Shown here piece by piece: positions 7,164-21,275 of a stretch of DNA of 64,000 bases (the stretch's first letter is position 1; each line of letters begins with the position of its first letter). Position numbers and translations under genes: made by a program. The stretch is from the NCBI GenBank assembly GCA_963711545.1, contig CAVQEP010000014.1, positions 246,598 to 310,597 on the forward strand, read 5' to 3'. This DNA comes from an uncultured Actinomycetes bacterium (GTDB taxonomy: Bacteria > Actinomycetota > Thermoleophilia > Gaiellales > Gaiellaceae). The notes under the pieces are model-generated. The model had not been told where the DNA came from and searched no databases. It worked only from the letters and a program-made list of their open reading frames with translations.

Positions 7164-7702
7164 AACGTGTTCTTTTCGATCAAGAGAACAAGAGCACACG
7201 GTGGATGCCTTGGCGCCAAGAGCCGATGAAGGACGTGGGCGGCTGCGATAAGCGCGGGGGAGGTGCTGACCAACCTTTGATCCCGCGATCTCCGAATGGG
7301 AAAACCTACGCGTGGTAATGCGCGCGTACTTCCAGCTGAATCCATAGGCTGGAAGAGGCAAGCCGGAGAACTGAAACATCTTAGTACCCGGAGGAAAGGA
7401 AAGAAACCTCGACTCCCTGAGTAGTGGCGAGCGAAAAGGGAATAGCCCAAACCTGTGTGATGTGACAGGCGGCAGCCGTTGTCACGCAGGGGTTGTAGGG
7501 CCTGATTCGATCCGCCTGCCGGCGGGTCGGGAAGTTACAAAGTTGCGCGTTAGCCGAAGTGGATGGAAAGCCACACCACAGCGGGTAATAGTCTCGTAGG
7601 CGAAAGCGCGCAGCCTTCCTGATCAGGTTCCTGAGTACGGCCGGGCACGGGAAACCCGGTCGGAACCCGCGGGGACCACCCCGTAAGGCTAAGTACTCCT
7701 TG

Positions 7703-7750
<48 letters not shown>

Positions 7751-9181
7751 GGAAGGGGAGTGAAATAGCACCTGAAACCGTGTGCTTACAAGCGGTCGGA
7801 GCAGCTTCGTGCTGTGACGGCGTGCTTTTTGCATAACGAGCCAGCGAGTTACTCTTCAACGGCAAGGTTAAGGAAACGGAGCCGTAGCGAAAGCGAGTCT
7901 GAATAGGGCGTCTAGTCGTTGGAGGTAGACCCGAAACTGAGTGATCTATCCATGGGCAGGTTGAAGCGGGGGTAAGACCCCGTGGAGGACCGAACCGACC
8001 TAGGTTGAAAACTGGGCGGATGACCTGTGGATCGGAGTGAAAGGCTAATCAAACTCAGAGATATCTGGTTCTCCCCGAAATATATTTAGGTATAGCGTCA
8101 TGCGTTCAATAACGGTTGTAGAGCACTGTTTGGGCTAGGGGGCCTACCAGCTTACTGAACTCAGGCAAACTCCGAATGCCGTTATTCCAGAGCATGGCAG
8201 TCAGAGTGCGGGGGATAAGCTTCGTGCTCAAAAGGGAAACAGCCCAGACCGTCGGCTAAGGTCCCTAATTTCCAGCTAAGTGGGAAACGATGTCCGATTG
8301 CAAAGACAACCAGGATGTTGGCTTAGAAGCAGCCACCATTCAAAGAGTGCGTAACAGCTCACTGGTCAAGTGGTCGGGCGCGGACAATGTAACGGGGCTC
8401 AAGTTGGAAACCGAAGCCACGGACTCCTTCGGGAGTGGTAGGGGAGCGTTCCCAGGCCGGAGAAGCGGCGGCGGAAGCCTGCCGTGGAGGGCTGGGAAGT
8501 GAGAATGCTGGCACGAGTAACGAAAGACGAGTGAGAAACTCGTCCGCCGAATGCCTAAGGGTTCCTGAGTAAAGCTAATCTACTCAGGGTTAGTCGGGAC
8601 CTAAGCCGAGGCCGAAAGGCGTAGGCGATGGCCGACAGGTTGATATTCCTGTACCACGTAGCCACCGCTATCACCGATGGCGGGACGGGGTAGGCTAAGG
8701 AAACCCGGGCGATGGTCGTCCCGGGGTAACCGCGTAGGGCGGCCGGTAGGTAAATCCGCCGGCCACTAAGCCTGAGACGGGACACCGAGCCCCTTCACCG
8801 GGGCGAAGTTCTTGAAGCCATGCCTCCTAGAAAAGCGTCTAGGGAGGTGGCGCGTGCCCGTACCAAAACCGACACAGGTAGGCAGGTAGAGAATACCAAG
8901 GCGATCGGAAGAACCCTCGTTAAGGAACTCGGCAAAATGGTCCCGTAACTTCGGGAGAAGGGACGCCCCGGTAGAGTGAAAACCCTTTTCGGGTTTAGCT
9001 CGAGGGGGCCGCAGTGAAACGGCCCAAGCGACTGTTTACCAAAAACACAGGTCTCTGCGAAGTCGAAAGACGACGTATAGGGGCTGACGCCTGCCCGGTG
9101 CCGGAAGGTCACGAGGAGAGGTTAGCCTTCGGGCGAAGCTTTGAATCCAAGCCCCGGTAAACGGCGGCGGTAACTATAACC

Positions 9182-9957
<776 letters not shown>

Positions 9958-10242
9958 AAGTTCCGACCTGCACGAATGGCGTAACGACTTGGGCACTGTC
10001 TCAACGAGGGATCCGGTGAAACTGTAGTCTCGGTGAAGATGCCGAGTACCCGTGGTTGGACGGAAAGACCCCGTGAACCTTTACTACAGCTTGACGTTGA
10101 AGTCTGGTGTTCGTTGTCCAGGATAGGTGGGAGGCTGTGAAGCGGGGACGTCAGTCCTCGTGGAGCCAACCTTGGGATACCACCCTGCGGATTCTGGGCT
10201 TCTAACCAGAGGCCGTTATCCGGCTCTGGAACAGCGTCAGGT

Positions 10243-10274
<32 letters not shown>

Positions 10275-10424
10275 ATGTAACGGAGGCGCGCAAAGGTTCC
10301 CTCAGCACGGTTGGAAATCGTGCGTAGAGCGTAATGGCATAAGGGAGCTTGACTGCGAGACTGACAAGTCGAGCAGGTGCGAAAGCAGGCCATAGTGATC
10401 CGGCGGTGAAGCGTGGAATTGCCG

Positions 10425-10467
<43 letters not shown>

Positions 10468-10494
10468 CTTCCCAAGAGTCCACATCGACGGAAG

Positions 10495-10624
<130 letters not shown>

Positions 10625-10740
10625 CCATGGGCGCTGGAAGCTTGAGAGGAGTCGCTCCTAGTACGAGAGGACCGGAGCGAACAGACCTCTGGTGTATCAG
10701 TCGTCGTGCCAACGGCGCTGCTGATTAGCCACGTCTGGAT

Positions 10741-10777
<37 letters not shown>

Positions 10778-10915
10778 CTCGAGATGAGGCTTCCCATCCC
10801 CTAGAGGGAGTAAGAGCCGTGGGAGACCACCACGTTGATAGGCGGGACGTGCAAGCGTGGCAACGCGTTTAGCGGACCCGTACTAATTGCTCGAGGTCTT
10901 GATTTTGAACACCGA

Positions 10916-15372: not shown

Positions 15373-15738
15373 GTGCCAGGGAAGGACGGCCAATGCGAGC
15401 TTCTCTGCCTCGACCTTCCGCTCGCCAAACGCCTCCGCAACGAACGGATAGAGCTACAGGCTGCTGCCCTGGTAGCCGGTCTTGCTGGCGCGCTTGGCGA
15501 TCCGACGCGCGTGGCTGTGGCCTCGACTCTTCTACAGGCGGACGAACTGTGTGTCTGTGATCTGTCCTGGATCGTCGAGCGTCCGCAGGCGCTTGTCTCG
15601 CATCATGCCCGGGTTCTGCGTGAGCGCGGGCTCGTGCGTTCACGGCGCGAGGGGAAGATGGTCCTGTACTCCGTAACCGACCAAGGACGGGCTTTGCTCG
15701 GCTCCGTGCTCGCATTGACGAAGCCCGCGTATGTCTAG
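15373..15738 (+). CDS. ArsR/SmtB family metalloregulatory transcription factor
   Basis: 121 aa. LGDPTRVAVASTLL...ELCVCDL...SHHARVLRERGLV wHTH pattern, including the ELCVCDL metal/metalloid-binding box. The start codon is uncertain. Confidence 0.85.
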   Translation: MPGKDGQCELLCLDLPLAKRLRNERIELQAAALVAGLAGALGDPTRVAVASTLLQADELCVCDLSWIVERPQALVSHHARVLRERGLVRSRREGKMVLYSVTDQGRALLGSVLALTKPAYV

Positions 15739-16420
15739 CCACGCAGGAGGCGGTCTGATTCAGCTTGGGACTGTTCCGCCCGGTCCGGCTGCTGCGCTCG
15801 GTCTGTCAGCAGCGGAGCGGTCGCACTGGGAGCATCGGGCTCGGCTGCTTGCATGGAGCGGGATCGCGTGGCACGTCGTCGAGTTCCTGATTGCGCTCCT
15901 CGCCGGTCTCGCCGCGGGCTCGATCGCGCTCATTGGCTTCGGCGCCGACAGTCTCATCGAAGCCATCGCAGGATTCGTCGTCATCTGGCTGTTCACCGGG
16001 CGTCGGATCGGTTCGAGCCACGCCGAACGACGGGCGCAGCAGATGATCGCCGTCAGCTTCTACGTCCTCGCCGCCTACGTAAGCGTTGAGTCGATACGTA
16101 CGCTCGTCAACACCGATCACCCACAAGTGAGCTGGGTCGGGATCGGCTTGGCGGCATTCACCGCGATCACGATGCCGCTGCTCGCCCGTGCGAAGCGGCA
16201 TGTCGGAGCGAAGCTGCACTCGGCCGCGACCGTGAAGGAAGCGTCGCAGACGAGCCTGTGCGCGTATCTCTCTGTGGCCCTGCTCGTCGGGCTCGGCGCG
16301 AATGCCCTCTTCGGCTTGTGGTGGGCCGACCCACTCGCTGCGCTCGTGATCGCGGCTTTCGCCCTCAGGGAAGGCCGCGAGAGCTGGCGTGGCGAAGGCT
16401 GCGCCGACGGCTGTTGCTGA
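15731..16420 (+). CDS. Cation diffusion facilitator-like membrane transporter (TMD only)
   Basis: 229 aa and polytopic. GADSLIEAI...WAD pattern of cation-efflux family TMDs, with a Cys-rich C-terminus (GEGCADGCC). Overlaps the arsR stop by 8 nt. Confidence 0.7.
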   Translation: MSSHAGGGLIQLGTVPPGPAAALGLSAAERSHWEHRARLLAWSGIAWHVVEFLIALLAGLAAGSIALIGFGADSLIEAIAGFVVIWLFTGRRIGSSHAERRAQQMIAVSFYVLAAYVSVESIRTLVNTDHPQVSWVGIGLAAFTAITMPLLARAKRHVGAKLHSAATVKEASQTSLCAYLSVALLVGLGANALFGLWWADPLAALVIAAFALREGRESWRGEGCADGCC

Positions 16421-16546
16421 CTGACTGCGGCCTCGCTCCGCCGATGCCGCGGCGACTGGTTCGGGCGCTGTCCAGGACTATGCTCGTCTCGGTAGACGGA
16501 CACGGCGCAATGGACCAACCGGGGCGTTTTGACCGCCTGGAGGTAG

Positions 16547-18160
16547 ATGAAAGTTCTTGAAGGATTGTCCGGGGGCATCGAGGCCGGGAGCACCTTGTCG
16601 GTGGCTGATCTGGAGCTTCCGGTGAATGGCACGAACGGTGTGCTCCTGGTCTTCTGGAAATCGACCTGACAAGGCTGTCGGCAGGAGTCTCCTGCCGTCG
16701 TCAGGCTCCATGAGCGGTTCGCTGGGGACGGGCTCGAGGTCGTTTACATCGGTGCGATCGAGACCGAGGACTCATGTCGCGCCTGGAAGGAGGAGTTCGG
16801 TCTCGAGTTCCCGGTGATCCCGGACCGCGAAGGGGAGCTGTTCCGCGCGCTCACCAACGGGTGGGTTCCTTGGAGCGTTCTCGTGGGACCTGACCGCAGG
16901 GTCGTGTTCTCAGAGAACGAGTTCGACGAGTCGGGCTTCTCGATCGCCATCCAGCAGATGTATCAGCGTCCCACCGTGGGGAAGGCGAGCTCCCGCCGCA
17001 CCACTGGATCTGCCGGCTGCACAGTGGTGCTAGGCGGTGGAACCGGTGGGTTGGTTGCCGCGAACGAGGTTCGGCGCCGGCTCCCATCCGAGCATCGGGT
17101 CGTGCTCGTCGACCGCGCCGCGGCGCACGTGTACCAGCCGTCGCTGCTGTGGCAGATGGTGGGCGAGCGTCGCCTGAGCCAGTTCACGCGGCCGCTTGCA
17201 GGGCTACAGAAGAAGGGGATCGAGTTCCGCAACACGGAAGTCCAGATACTCGACCTCGACAACCGGGTCGTCGTTACCCCGTCCGGAGATCTCGACTACG
17301 ACTCGCTGGTCGTCTCGTTGGGCGCCCAACTTGTGCCCGAGACGGTCGAGGGCTTCGACGAGATGGCCCTTAACCTTTATAGCCCCGCCGGGTGCGACCA
17401 GATCCACAACGCCCTTCGGGGCTTCACAGACGGCGTCGTCGGAATCCTCATCCCGGAGCTGCCGTTCAAGTGCCCCGCCGCGCCATACGAGGCCGCTTTC
17501 CTCGCTGAATCGTTTCTACGCAAGAAGGGGATCCGCCGGAACGTCGAGATCCACCTGTTCACGCCCGAGCACACGCCGATGCCCGTTGCACCCGCGACTC
17601 TTGGTGGCTCGATCGCAGACATGCTCGCCGCGCGCGGTATCCATTACCACCCACTGTTCACCTTCGAGAAGCTTCGGCCCGAGACGCGGGAGGTCGTCGC
17701 CTCAGACGGCCGTACGCAGCAGGTCGACCTGCTGATCGGCGTCCCACCCCACCACGCCCCTGAGGTCGTGCGGTCGTCACCGCTCCTCGGGGTTTCGGGC
17801 TTCGTACACGTTGACTCGCTGACCCTTCAGACCGATTTCGAGGACGTCTACGCGATCGGTGACGTGGCGACCATCAAGCTCTCCAACGGTAAGGCTCTCC
17901 CAAAGGCGGGTGTCTTCGCCCACGCCGAGGCCAAAGTCGTAGCGCGTCGGATTGCCGATGCGGCCGAGCGCAAGACGTCCGGGGCCGTGTTCGACGGTCA
18001 CGGCTACTGCTGGATCGAACTGGGCGACGGTCGGGCTGGATTCGCTGGGGGCAACTTCTACGCCGAGCCCGATGCCCGGGTCAAGATGAGACGACCTCGG
18101 CGCACGCTCCACTGGGGCAAGGTGGCATTCGAGAAGTGGTGGCTGCACCACTGGTTCTAA
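16547..18160 (+). CDS. Thioredoxin-fold (redoxin/TlpA-like) domain fused to a sulfide:quinone-oxidoreductase-like FAD flavoprotein. It has an in-frame TGA (16667-16669) at the first Cys of CxxC, so it is a candidate selenoprotein, or alternatively a pseudogene.
   Basis: ATG at 16547 is preceded by GGAGG and by an in-frame TAG. Forty codons later comes VLLVFWKST-TGA-QGC. The frame stays open with no further stop into the track ORF 16814..18160, through EEFGLEFPVIPDREGELF...WSVLVGPDRRVVF (the remainder of the thioredoxin fold). Then come GGGTGG (FAD), FKCPAAPYE and GYCWIELG (SQR-type redox Cys). The 16814-18160 portion is certainly coding. The read-through interpretation is inference. Confidence 0.6.
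16679..16697 (+). promoter_or_regulatory. Candidate bacterial SECIS hairpin
   Basis: cggcagga-gtc-tcctgccg is an 8-bp perfect stem. The loop G (16687) is 20 nt downstream of the U of the TGA. A possible 3-bp lower extension pairs ctg (16675-77) with cag (16702-04). Confidence 0.45.
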
Positions 18161-18190: not shown

Positions 18191-20827
18191 GTGCGAGCCT
18201 TCTCCCAAGTGGAGCAGACGTTCCTGGAGCGCGACCGCGAGACGGAGGCACTGGGCCGCTGGCTCGATGATGTCGGACGCTCCGGTGCAGGCCACTTCGT
18301 CCTTGTCGCAGGGGAAGCGGGTATCGGCAAGACGACGCTAGTGCGTCACTTTTGCGAGAGCCGCAGTCGCTCGCGCCTGTTCTGGGGCCTTTGTGATCCG
18401 CTGGCGACGCCTGCTCCTCTGGGGCCGATCGTCGAGGTCGCCGCGCAGCTGGACGGCGCGGCTGCCGAAGTCGTAGCGGGGGTGGCGCGGCCGTACGAGG
18501 TCGGCCGAGCAATGCTCGAGGATCTGGCCGGCCAGAGGTCGGCGATCGTGGTGCTCGAAGACCTCCACTGGGCCGACGACAGCACGATCGATGTCCTGGT
18601 CTATCTCGCGCGTCGCATCGACCGCGCTCCAGTGCTTCTGATCGGCACGTACCGAAACGACACGGTCGATGAGTCGCACCGGCTTCGGCTGGCGCTCGGT
18701 CTGCTCGCGACGGCGCCGCGAGTCGAGCGTCTCTCCCTGCGGCCGCTCTCGCTCGAAGCGGTTCGCAGTCTTTCGGGCGCGGCAGGGCGGGATGGAGATG
18801 TCGTGTTCGCAACCACCCGCGGCAATCCGTTCTTCGTTAGCGAGCTACTCGCCTCGCCTTCTGGCGAGCTCCCGGCGACCGTGCGCGAGGCCGTGCTCGG
18901 CCGCGTGTGGCGGCTGGACGAGGATGCGCGGGCTCTGCTCGATCTCGTGTCGGTGGTGCCGCCTCAGGCCGAGCTCTGGCTGGTCGATGCGATTCCGGGC
19001 GCAGCGAGTGGTGCGGTTGAGCGGTGCCTGATCGCCGGGCTCCTCGAGCGCGACGGGCAAGCGGTGTCATTTCGCCACGAATTGGCAAGGCTCGCGGTCG
19101 AGCAGGCGCTGAGCCCTGAGCGGGCGGCGAGGCTCAACGAGCAGGTGATGCGCGCGCTCGAGGCTGCCGGAGCTGAGCACGCTCGGCTCGTCCACCACGC
19201 CGAAGCTGCCGGCGACGCACCTGCGCTGCTCCGGCATGCGACCGCTGCCGGCAAACGCTCGGCGGAACTCGGGGCCCACCGCGAGGCTGCAGAGCAGTAC
19301 GGTCGCGCGCTCTCGGTCGCGGCGTCCTTGCCCGATGTGGAGCGCGCGGACCTGCTGTCCCGCTACTCCTTCGAGCGCTACCTGACTGACCGACTCGATG
19401 AGGCGATCCTTGCGCAGCGACAGGCCGTCGAGCTCTTCGGCGCTGCGGGCGACCGCGAACACGAGGGCGACGGATTGCGCCGTCTCTCGCGCTACCTCTG
19501 GTTCGGCGGCCACAACGAAGAGGCTGAGACAACAGCACACGAGGCGGTGACGGTGCTGGAGCAGCTTCCGGAGGGCGCAGCGCTTGCCCGTGCGTACAGC
19601 AACGTCTCGCAGTTGCGGATGCTGGCATACGACAGCGGCGCGGCGATCGACTGGGGCACACGCGCGCTTCGTCTCGCAGAGCGCTGCCAGGCGGACGACA
19701 TCGGCATCCACGCGCTCGCAAACATCGGCTCCGCCGAAGTGCTCATCGGACGCGAGGCGTCCGGTCGCGCGAAGCTCGAAGCCAGCCTCGCACGAGCCCG
19801 CGCCCTCGGGCTCGACGACGACGCTGGCCGTGCCTATGCCAACCTGGCCACGCTGGCGGTCGAGCGGCGCCAGTTTGCGCTCGCCGATCGCTACCTCGCG
19901 GAAGGGATTGCGTATTGCGACGAGCACGACCTCCTTTCATACGGCCTCTACCTCCGCGCTTGGCGGGCGCGCCTCGCGCTCGACAGCGGCCGCTGGAGCG
20001 CGGCCGCGAAGCTCGCCGCGGAAGTCCTGGCGCACCCACAGGCGTCAGCGCCGACGCGAATCGTCGTCTCTGTCGTCGGCGGGCTCGTCGCGGTTCGCGT
20101 GGGCGAGGCAGAGCGCGGGGAGGCAATGCTGGACGAGGGGCTGGCGACAGCTGCGCCGACAGGCGAGCTACAACGGCTGGCTCCAGTCGGCGCCGCGCGG
20201 GCGGAAGCAGCCTGGCTTCGCGGAGACTCAGCGGGCGTGGACGAGGCAACCGCCGCCGTCGCCGCTCTTGCAGCTCAGCGGGGTCAGCGCTGGCTGCTCG
20301 GCGACCTCGCTGTGTGGCGGCAGCGCTCCGGGCTGACGACGTCGGCCGCCCATGTGTCGCCACCGGCCGAAGCCGAGCTAGCTGGTGATTTTGTGAGGGC
20401 GTCTACGTTGTGGGGCGATCTTGGCTGCCCGTACGAGGCGGCGCTTGCATTAGCAGGGGCCGAGGAAGAGCCAGCACTACGGCGGGCGCTCGGAGAGCTG
20501 CAGCGGCTCGGCGCGACGTCTGCGGCTCGGATAGTCACGAGGCGGCTGCGAGCACGAGGCGTGCACGACGTCCCGCGCGGCCCCTACCGAGCGGCGCGGC
20601 AGAACCCGGCAGGACTCACTGCACGCGAGCTCGACGTGCTCGCACTGCTCGCACAACGGCTGAGCAACGCCGAGATCGCCGGCCGGCTCGTCCTTTCGCC
20701 GCGCACGGTCGATCACCACGTCTCACGGATCCTGGCGAAGCTAGACGTCCACACACGCACGGAGGCCGTCGATGCAGCGCGTGAATTAGGCGTCGTGAAA
20801 GACCAGGTGTCTCAGCGCGAAAAATAG
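18191..20827 (+). CDS. Large ATP-binding LuxR-family regulator (LAL/MalT-like: AAA/NACHT-type ATPase + TPR-like + LuxR HTH)
   Basis: 878 aa. Walker A GEAGIGKTTL. C-terminal LTARELDVLALLAQRLSNAEIAGRLVLSPRTVDHHVSRILAKL. Confidence 0.9.
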   Translation: MRAFSQVEQTFLERDRETEALGRWLDDVGRSGAGHFVLVAGEAGIGKTTLVRHFCESRSRSRLFWGLCDPLATPAPLGPIVEVAAQLDGAAAEVVAGVARPYEVGRAMLEDLAGQRSAIVVLEDLHWADDSTIDVLVYLARRIDRAPVLLIGTYRNDTVDESHRLRLALGLLATAPRVERLSLRPLSLEAVRSLSGAAGRDGDVVFATTRGNPFFVSELLASPSGELPATVREAVLGRVWRLDEDARALLDLVSVVPPQAELWLVDAIPGAASGAVERCLIAGLLERDGQAVSFRHELARLAVEQALSPERAARLNEQVMRALEAAGAEHARLVHHAEAAGDAPALLRHATAAGKRSAELGAHREAAEQYGRALSVAASLPDVERADLLSRYSFERYLTDRLDEAILAQRQAVELFGAAGDREHEGDGLRRLSRYLWFGGHNEEAETTAHEAVTVLEQLPEGAALARAYSNVSQLRMLAYDSGAAIDWGTRALRLAERCQADDIGIHALANIGSAEVLIGREASGRAKLEASLARARALGLDDDAGRAYANLATLAVERRQFALADRYLAEGIAYCDEHDLLSYGLYLRAWRARLALDSGRWSAAAKLAAEVLAHPQASAPTRIVVSVVGGLVAVRVGEAERGEAMLDEGLATAAPTGELQRLAPVGAARAEAAWLRGDSAGVDEATAAVAALAAQRGQRWLLGDLAVWRQRSGLTTSAAHVSPPAEAELAGDFVRASTLWGDLGCPYEAALALAGAEEEPALRRALGELQRLGATSAARIVTRRLRARGVHDVPRGPYRAARQNPAGLTARELDVLALLAQRLSNAEIAGRLVLSPRTVDHHVSRILAKLDVHTRTEAVDAARELGVVKDQVSQREK

Positions 20828-20900: not shown

Positions 20901-21275
20901 ATGGACGGAAACGGAAACGGCAAAGTGGTCGTCAACCTCGCGACTGGGCTCGAGGATCCCGAGCGGGTGACCGTGGCGTTCCTCGTCGCCGGCGCAGCCG
21001 CCACACAAGGCAAGGACGTCACCATCTTCCTGACCAAGGAGGCAGTGCGCCTCGCACTCCCGGGTGTCACCGAAGGCACCGCCTGCGACGGCTGCCCGCC
21101 TCTTCCGACGCTGGCGGCGCAATTCGCGGAGGCCGGCGGGAGACTGCTCGTCTGTCCGATCTGCCTCGGTGCGCGCAAGCTCAGCGAGGACGGCCTCATC
21201 GATAACGCGCAGCTCGGCGGTGCGACGCCGCTCTGGCAGTGGATTGGCGATGGCGCGACGGTCTTCAGCTACTGA
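20901..21275 (+). CDS. DsrE/DsrF-like sulfur-relay family protein
   Basis: 124 aa. KVVVNLATG...VTIFLTKEAV...LLVCPICLGAR...GGATPLWQWI pattern. AAGGAGG RBS lies 6 nt upstream of the ATG. Confidence 0.8.
   Translation: MDGNGNGKVVVNLATGLEDPERVTVAFLVAGAAATQGKDVTIFLTKEAVRLALPGVTEGTACDGCPPLPTLAAQFAEAGGRLLVCPICLGARKLSEDGLIDNAQLGGATPLWQWIGDGATVFSY

Follow-up and report, generated by a model that had tools for sequence, protein, structure and literature searches.

A probable SECIS hairpin and a probable internal selenocysteine codon in an uncatalogued redoxin–SQR fusion gene of Gaiellaceae

We analysed a stretch of 64,000 nucleotides (nt; hereafter, the window) from an uncultured Actinomycetes bacterium of the family Gaiellaceae (Actinomycetota; Thermoleophilia; Gaiellales), which corresponds to positions 246,598 to 310,597 of the forward strand of contig CAVQEP010000014.1 in GenBank assembly GCA_963711545.1. 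An earlier note, made from the sequence alone, had pointed to a hairpin directly downstream of an in-frame TGA and proposed that it is a bacterial selenocysteine insertion sequence (SECIS). We find that this hairpin, at positions 16679–16697 of the window, is very probably a functional SECIS and that the UGA is very probably read as selenocysteine (Sec, U) in a 537-residue protein that fuses a thioredoxin-fold redoxin domain to a flavoprotein of the sulfide:quinone oxidoreductase (SQR) type; we infer SelB binding and Sec insertion as part of this reading. The gene and the element comprise the following features, given with their strand and, where protein is concerned, in amino acids (aa) of the full-length product.

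16539–16543, + strand: Shine–Dalgarno-like GGAGG, 3 nt 5′ of the ATG start, read from the sequence.
16547–18160, + strand: putative full selenoprotein open reading frame (ORF), encoding a redoxin (UxxC)–SQR-like fusion of 537 aa plus TAA if the TGA at 16667 stands for Sec.
16586–16933, + strand: ResA/TlpA-like thioredoxin-fold (AhpC-TSA/Redoxin) domain, aa 14–129, from Pfam; it spans the TGA.
16667–16669, + strand: in-frame UGA, putative Sec codon 41, followed by an invariant C (UGAC).
16679–16697, + strand: putative SECIS hairpin with an 8-bp stem and the apical loop GUC; 7 bp are conserved (16680–16686 with 16690–16696).
16687–16689, + strand: apical loop G-U-C, with G at position 1 in 32 of 32 sequences.
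16814–18160, + strand: shortened 448-aa ORF under translation table 11, from a GTG start inside the redoxin domain.
17024–18157, + strand: SQR-type flavoprotein domain, aa 160–537, from SQOR alignment, NCBIfam and Foldseek.

The TGA at 16667 is in frame with the ATG at 16547 and with the downstream ORF, whose terminal stop is a TAA at 18158–18160, and both the TGA and the hairpin lie within ORF 16547–18160. The position of the GGAGG supports 16547 as the true start over the GTG at 16814. The arms of the hairpin, cggcagga (16679–16686) and tcctgccg (16690–16697), form eight perfect Watson–Crick pairs around a GTC loop, the spacing from the UGA to the loop is 17 nt, and, counted from the U of the UGA, G16687 is at 20 nt and U16688 at 21 nt. 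The earlier note had described this stem and placed these two loop bases at these distances, and on both counts it is exact. Its further suggestion that ctg (16675–77) and cag (16702–04) could extend the stem downwards is not supported: these positions are paired in only 70% of cells across orthologues, with no compensatory change, and we rejected them as part of the conserved element.

Taken on its own, the fold of this single sequence is mildly unusual. A 49-nt context folds at −20.3 kcal/mol (z = −1.85), an energy that 7 of 200 dinucleotide shuffles equal, and because the genome has a GC content of 69%, folding energy says little here. Perfect stems of 8 bp or more whose loop has a G at position 1 or 2 have an expectation of about 0.0055 per site (within a 22-nt SECIS zone), and such a stem follows 3 of the 673 TGA triplets on the + strand of the window. 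This rarity is unusual but not decisive, and the decisive support comes from the comparison of orthologues.

The hairpin fits the published consensus for bacterial SECIS (bSECIS) elements. In the model of Zhang and Gladyshev, as summarised in PMC13188914, the apical loop has 3–9 nt, the upper stem 4–16 bp, the spacing is 16–37 nt and the minimum free energy is at most −7.5 kcal/mol, and the first or second loop base is a G, as a rule with G or U after it; between genes, the elements are often unlike in sequence (PMC13188914). Here, the loop has 3 nt, the stem of the window has 8 bp, 7 of them kept in all orthologues, the spacing is 17 nt and the isolated 19-nt hairpin has a minimum free energy of −13.1 kcal/mol. 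The loop begins with G then U; of the 32 sequences, 31 have U or G at its second position and one, orthologue L037, has C. Since the alignment has no gaps, the UGA-to-loop spacing is equal in every orthologue. Like the fdhF/fdnG-type SECIS of Escherichia coli, this is an intragenic stem-loop directly 3′ of a putative Sec-UGA, with a GC-rich upper stem and a small loop that starts with G-U. The two differ in that the primary sequence here is unrelated to that of fdhF, the loop has 3 nt and there is no equivalent of the bulged U that the E. coli element carries. It is instead typical of its lineage, as a SelW-like gene of this genome has the same GAGUCUC apex. As it is of the textbook bacterial type, the hairpin extends a known class and brings no new mechanism.

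We used a set of 31 full-length orthologous loci (DNA-level matches to residues 1–537) from species-representative genomes, which span Gaiellales/Thermoleophilia, Gemmatimonadota, Acidobacteriota and Desulfobacterales. Together with the window they make up 32 sequences, of which the 30 that are distinct are used for pair counts. The TGA stands at the identical codon in 31 of 31 orthologues, within FWKxx-TGA-xxCRxE, with invariant residues both upstream (G14, L24, P25, V35, F36, W37 and K38) and downstream (C44, R45, E47 and P49). The earlier note had reasoned that a hairpin missing from orthologues that retain the TGA would speak against a SECIS; all 31 keep both. As a separate observation on this set, six orthologues from long-read metagenome-assembled genomes (L032, L037, L043, L045, L046 and L052) have frameshifts inside the gene, and their public calls include out-of-frame stretches; these frameshifts are probably assembly errors rather than signs of pseudogenes, and they distort the tree branch lengths of L032 and L045.

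The 45 nt from the TGA onward align without gaps across the 32 sequences. In this alignment, 94.6% of the cells of the 8-pair helix are paired, a proportion that drops to 33–63% when the 3′ partners are slid by 1–3 columns, and none of 500 shuffles matches the observed pairing or covariation score. The seven core pairs account for 209 paired cells of 210, and the eighth and outermost pair, C16679–G16697, is kept in 18 of the 30 distinct sequences. Compensatory changes, which the earlier note had asked to be looked for in orthologous genes, are present in two stem pairs. The pair 16683/16693 is A-U in 20 sequences and G-C in 10, with no intermediates; position 16683 is the second position of a CAG (Gln) or CGG (Arg) codon, and position 16693 is the synonymous third position of Pro49 (CCU or CCC), with CCU making up 10% of the Pro codons in the orthologue genes. 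On a maximum-likelihood tree this swap requires 4 changes, at least 2 of which are forced by well-supported branches. The pair 16681/16695 is G-C in 24 sequences, G-U in 5 and A-U in 1; the step from G-C to G-U comes with a change from Ala to Val in Gemmatimonadota, and A-U is reached in L035 through the synonymous change of CGG to CGA. No other helix is conserved across the orthologues.

Constraint at the RNA level is also suggested around the stem. Synonymous diversity at codons 35–52 is 0.17–0.25, the minimum of the gene, compared to a gene mean of 0.49 (s.d. 0.10). The base after the putative Sec-UGA (16670, alignment column 4) is C in 32 of 32 sequences, with the encoded residue being Q, H or L. 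UGA-C is a weak, leaky termination context in bacteria, and the invariant C fits selection for such a context.

The comparison of orthologues bears directly on whether the TGA could be a true stop, in which case a 40-codon upstream ORF would precede a separate 448-aa gene starting at GTG 16814, with a hairpin that arose by chance or is regulatory, or the locus would be a pseudogene. Every public gene call assumes as much, and GC-rich DNA often forms hairpins. A stop at this position, however, would split the redoxin domain and leave its N-terminal half untranslated, whereas the stretch from the TGA to the GTG is conserved as protein, all 31 orthologues, across four phyla, carry this same ‘nonsense’ codon, and the hairpin covaries. 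The ratio of non-synonymous to synonymous substitution rates (dN/dS) at codons 1–40 is 0.08–0.27 in Gaiellales relatives, the same as at codons 42–141; as this region is under purifying selection, the part 5′ of the TGA is translated in this frame. We thus hold a true stop to be extremely unlikely.

The gene is mis-annotated, cut at the UGA, in all public gene calls that we examined. When 5.8 billion protein clusters were searched, the best 120 public homologues are all 448–496 aa long and none spans the TGA. One of them (P0004, 448 aa) is 100% identical to the shortened ORF, and as 496 equals 537 minus 41, calls of that length begin just after the TGA. A protein search with residues 1–140 gave matches whose coverage never exceeded 70% of the query, so the first 41 residues are missing in every public call matched. 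These homologues go by the names ‘sulfide:quinone oxidoreductase’ or ‘FAD-dependent oxidoreductase’. The best 150 matches of a further search, of 1.84 billion representative proteins, gave only truncations starting after the TGA and stand-alone SQR-like proteins of roughly 380 aa, besides one ArsR–rhodanese–SQR-like fusion (P0253). As candidates for longer forms of the fusion, P0178 and P0179 were rejected as frameshifted calls and P0126 was rejected because it starts 3′ of the TGA and its C-terminal end is divergent.

The genome (3.25 Mb in 17 contigs) has the full machinery for Sec. It contains a tRNA-Sec (70.8 bits against RF01852; called SeC with anticodon tca by ARAGORN) and genes for SelA, SelD and a SelB with the C-terminal winged-helix domain. 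On contig C10, the tRNA-Sec gene lies at 147501–147591 and selB near 160042. SelA is found in 12 of the 12 orthologue-bearing genomes tested, compared to 2 of 14 control genomes. We considered and rejected a reassignment of TGA in the genetic code, since TGA is the commonest stop in the genome (it ends 1,293 of 2,224 long open frames) and terminates 8 of 25 orthologues. Orthologue conservation, covariation, the bSECIS model and the Sec machinery of the genome all agree with the proposal of a bacterial SECIS made in the earlier note.

Read-through could also occur without Sec, by near-cognate insertion of Trp or Cys, or the ribosome could pause, with the hairpin as a generic stimulator. The leakiness of UGA-C in bacteria would allow this, and downstream structures can stimulate read-through. 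This would leave the UGA at exactly the catalytic Cys of a CxxC motif, in a genome with full Sec machinery and a family with SelA in all 12 genomes tested, and followed by a hairpin whose geometry and loop G match the SelB-type SECIS model, all of which speak for Sec. A need for Cys or Trp would moreover predict a sense codon in some of the 31 lineages, but none was found. The chance that the UGA is read in this manner, rather than as Sec, is very slight.

A first genome scan (TGA, hairpin and a GC content at third codon positions, GC3, of at least 0.8) gave 109 mostly off-frame matches, missed the gene studied here and was discarded. With an added filter, for GC content at first codon positions greater than at second (GC1 > GC2), the scan gave 72 matches, of which three looked selenoprotein-like on inspection. 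Two of these, members of classic selenoprotein families, lie outside the window.

Contig C17, 290131–290133, minus strand: TGA of a SelW-like gene.
Contig C10, 283440–283442, minus strand: TGA of a peroxiredoxin (Prx) gene.

The SelW-like gene (Rdx, Pfam 52.9 bits) has a CxxU motif, in MRVEIYYCPV-U-DGYDQRAASL, and its TGA is followed by the hairpin GGCCGCGA-GUC-UCGCGGCC, with a loop that starts 25 nt after the UGA. Both this hairpin and the one studied here have the apex GAGUCUC although their coding contexts are unrelated, which speaks for a GAGUCUC apex as what the SelB of this organism recognises. The Prx gene (AhpC-TSA, 88.9 bits) has its in-frame TGA at the peroxidatic position (FDWSAT-U-TNE), with a 7-bp hairpin, GCUCCUG-CGUGA-CAGGAGC, 21 nt after the UGA, and is a third candidate selenoprotein of this genome.

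Several observations weigh against a functional SECIS or weaken the evidence for one. The single-sequence folding z-score is weak. No Rfam covariance model gave a SECIS match at the gathering threshold or at E values up to 10, a result that we treat as uninformative. The significance from shuffling is overstated, because the orthologues share ancestry. Three of the eight stem pairs never vary, which makes these pairs uninformative either way, and the stem sits in the conserved coding segment CRQE.PA. Synonymous diversity has a second dip, at codons 120–130, which is probably due to biased two-fold-degenerate codons that confound the profile. We found no Cys form of the fusion among the best 120 of 225 matches to the N-terminal domain and no full-length Cys form among the best 150 matches of a HMMER search of the 1.84 billion representative proteins; such forms are the classical control for a SECIS, through loss of the hairpin when UGA becomes UGC or UGU. 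Lastly, SelB binding and the insertion of Sec are themselves conclusions drawn from sequence comparison.

In a rival reading, the UGA would encode Sec but the hairpin would be mainly a by-product of the peptide CR(Q/R)E.PA, with the SelB determinant elsewhere, for example in a larger or alternative fold. The invariant pairs go together with invariant encoded residues (R45, E47 and P49), and the minimum free energy folds of single orthologues vary outside the core stem. A by-product of the peptide would not explain, however, why the change between Gln and Arg is perfectly coupled to the synonymous third position of a Pro codon, and to CCU, a codon rare in these genes, or why the second pair goes via G-U to A-U by a synonymous change of CGG to CGA. 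There is also no further conserved helix that could take the place of the hairpin, and the same GAGUCUC apex recurs in the SelW-like gene. We therefore regard a by-product as very improbable, if slightly less so than either a true stop or read-through without Sec.

Under the favoured reading, in which the hairpin acts as a SECIS, the product combines two domains that each have well-characterised relatives. At the N terminus, Pfam assigns AhpC-TSA to aa 14–105 (48.6 bits) and Redoxin to aa 31–129 (34.8 bits), both above their cut-offs. In an alignment to ResA structures from B. subtilis/Bacillus, U41 corresponds to the first Cys and C44 to the second Cys of the CxxC motif, with FWKST-U-QGC-RQE-P here aligned to FWGTW-C-KPC-EKE-P in ResA. 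The putative Sec is thus paired with a Cys in the CxxC of ResA, at the superfamily level only.

The C-terminal part matches Pyr_redox_2 (pyridine-nucleotide-disulfide oxidoreductase) in Pfam from aa 160 and has a GGGTGG motif for binding of flavin adenine dinucleotide (FAD) at aa 163–168, as well as a C-terminal amphipathic helix. Human SQOR matches this domain with an E value of 9e-32 and with both catalytic Cys aligned; the corresponding residues, Cys309 (17471–17473) and Cys488 (18008–18010), are invariant in the orthologues. An AlphaFold2 model, built with 26 orthologues, has a predicted local distance difference test score (pLDDT) of 82.5 and a predicted template modelling score (pTM) of 0.80. 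Searching with this model in Foldseek, the best match is human SQOR, at a template modelling (TM) score of 0.80–0.82, followed by bacterial SQRs, and no solved structure in the Protein Data Bank (PDB) was found that spans both the redoxin domain and the flavoprotein. With the FAD motif, the two redox Cys and the SQR fold of the model, the C-terminal part belongs to the SQR superfamily and is a predicted enzyme. Within the same SQR-like clade, a 644-aa protein (P0253) joins an ArsR-type helix-turn-helix (HTH) and a rhodanese-like domain to an SQR-like flavoprotein, with Ser at the position equivalent to Cys309 (PYKSPVAPYE); this ArsR–rhodanese–SQR-like fusion hints that the clade recruits sulfur-carrier domains.

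We propose that SelB, loaded with GTP and Sec-tRNA(Sec), would use its C-terminal winged-helix domains to bind the apical 7–8-bp stem with its G-first loop. With the stem starting 9–10 nt past the UGA, the SelB complex would be tethered for the A site when UGA 16667–16669 arrives there, and Sec would be inserted in place of termination by release factor 2 (RF2), aided by the weak UGA-C context. The product would be one protein of 537 residues in which Sec41 takes the place of the first, nucleophilic Cys in a CxxC of the ResA/TlpA type, and in which this Sec redoxin domain is joined to a FAD enzyme of the SQR type that has both redox Cys. The Sec domain could then serve as an intramolecular partner, or as a sulfane-sulfur acceptor, for the active-site Cys of the SQR. 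More tentatively, and with less than even confidence, Sec41 may be a tethered selenolate that accepts or resolves the sulfane sulfur of the SQR Cys through a Se–S relay, in what would be an apparently obligate-Sec class of SQR.

Selenoproteins related to either half have been described. A 2026 catalogue of prokaryotic selenoproteins includes Prx-like thiol:disulfide oxidoreductases (PF00578, UxxC) and, in its Table 1, UxxC selenoproteins that are Redoxin-family and TlpA-like (cd02966) (PMC13188914). The N-terminal domain shares with these the thioredoxin fold, matches to PF00578 and PF08534 and a putative Sec in the first position of UxxC (U-QG-C), but here it forms the N-terminal 150 residues of a 537-aa SQR fusion, and the catalogue lists no such fusion. 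The protein stays below the cut-off of every NCBIfam selenoprotein model (for example, NF041054, WAxxUGC_long, scores 25.8 against 300 bits and NF040769 scores 18.8 against 120). On the side of the flavoprotein, a deep-Sep study described a type III SQR selenoprotein, NF049943, with Sec in an HxxU active site (PMC12013277), which the 2026 catalogue lists too. It is the best NCBIfam match of the C-terminal domain (aa 160–508), and both would be selenium-using SQR-type flavoproteins, but the match scores 228 bits against a cut-off of 525. Whereas the Sec of NF049943 lies in the SQR active site (HxxU), the equivalent motif here is HGYC (Cys488) and the putative Sec belongs to an additional redoxin domain at the N terminus. 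Human and bacterial SQRs (SQOR; PDB 8dhk, 6oi5, 3hyv and 3t2z) share the fold (TM score 0.80–0.82), the FAD motif, both Cys and the C-terminal helix, at an identity of roughly 25%; the solved SQRs, however, have no fused redoxin and use free acceptors. The list of selenoprotein fusions in the GOS study holds no SQR fusion, and we found no description of a redoxin–SQR Sec fusion in the literature. Being absent from Table 1 of the 2026 review, from the GOS fusion list and from NCBIfam, the redoxin–SQR Sec fusion is an uncatalogued fusion variant.

The gene is flanked in the window by the following genes.

15373–15738: ArsR-family HTH regulator.
15731–16420: short CDF-like (cation-efflux-like) membrane protein, overlapping the ArsR gene.
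18191–20827: LAL (AAA+/LuxR) regulator, 878 aa.
20901–21275: DsrE/DsrF-like protein.

The CDF-like protein ends in GEGCADGCC directly before its TGA stop. The orthologues in L015, L019, L020, L032 and L043 also have genes of the CDF, DsrE or ArsR type no more than 1.5 kb away. These flanking genes may form a module for sulfur or thiol stress, and they are consistent with a thiol/sulfur theme, which is not proof of one. Elsewhere in the window, a 23S ribosomal RNA match at 7178–10906 covers 3,729 nt for a 2,925-position model, a length excess that implies an insertion of roughly 800 nt in this large-subunit (LSU) gene.

The value of the hairpin is that it supports the reading of an internal UGA as Sec in a gene family whose members are shortened in public calls, and its apex, GAGUCUC, is a usable SelB-recognition motif for finding further selenoprotein genes in Thermoleophilia. 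The family is widespread in little-studied phyla of soil and groundwater, seemingly without Cys forms. It could thus show why some enzymes cannot swap Sec for Cys, and it ties selenium to the metabolism of sulfide and persulfide. If the tentative Se–S relay holds true, sulfide and persulfide handling would be selenium-dependent in abundant Gaiellales/Thermoleophilia, Gemmatimonadota and Acidobacteriota of soil and groundwater.

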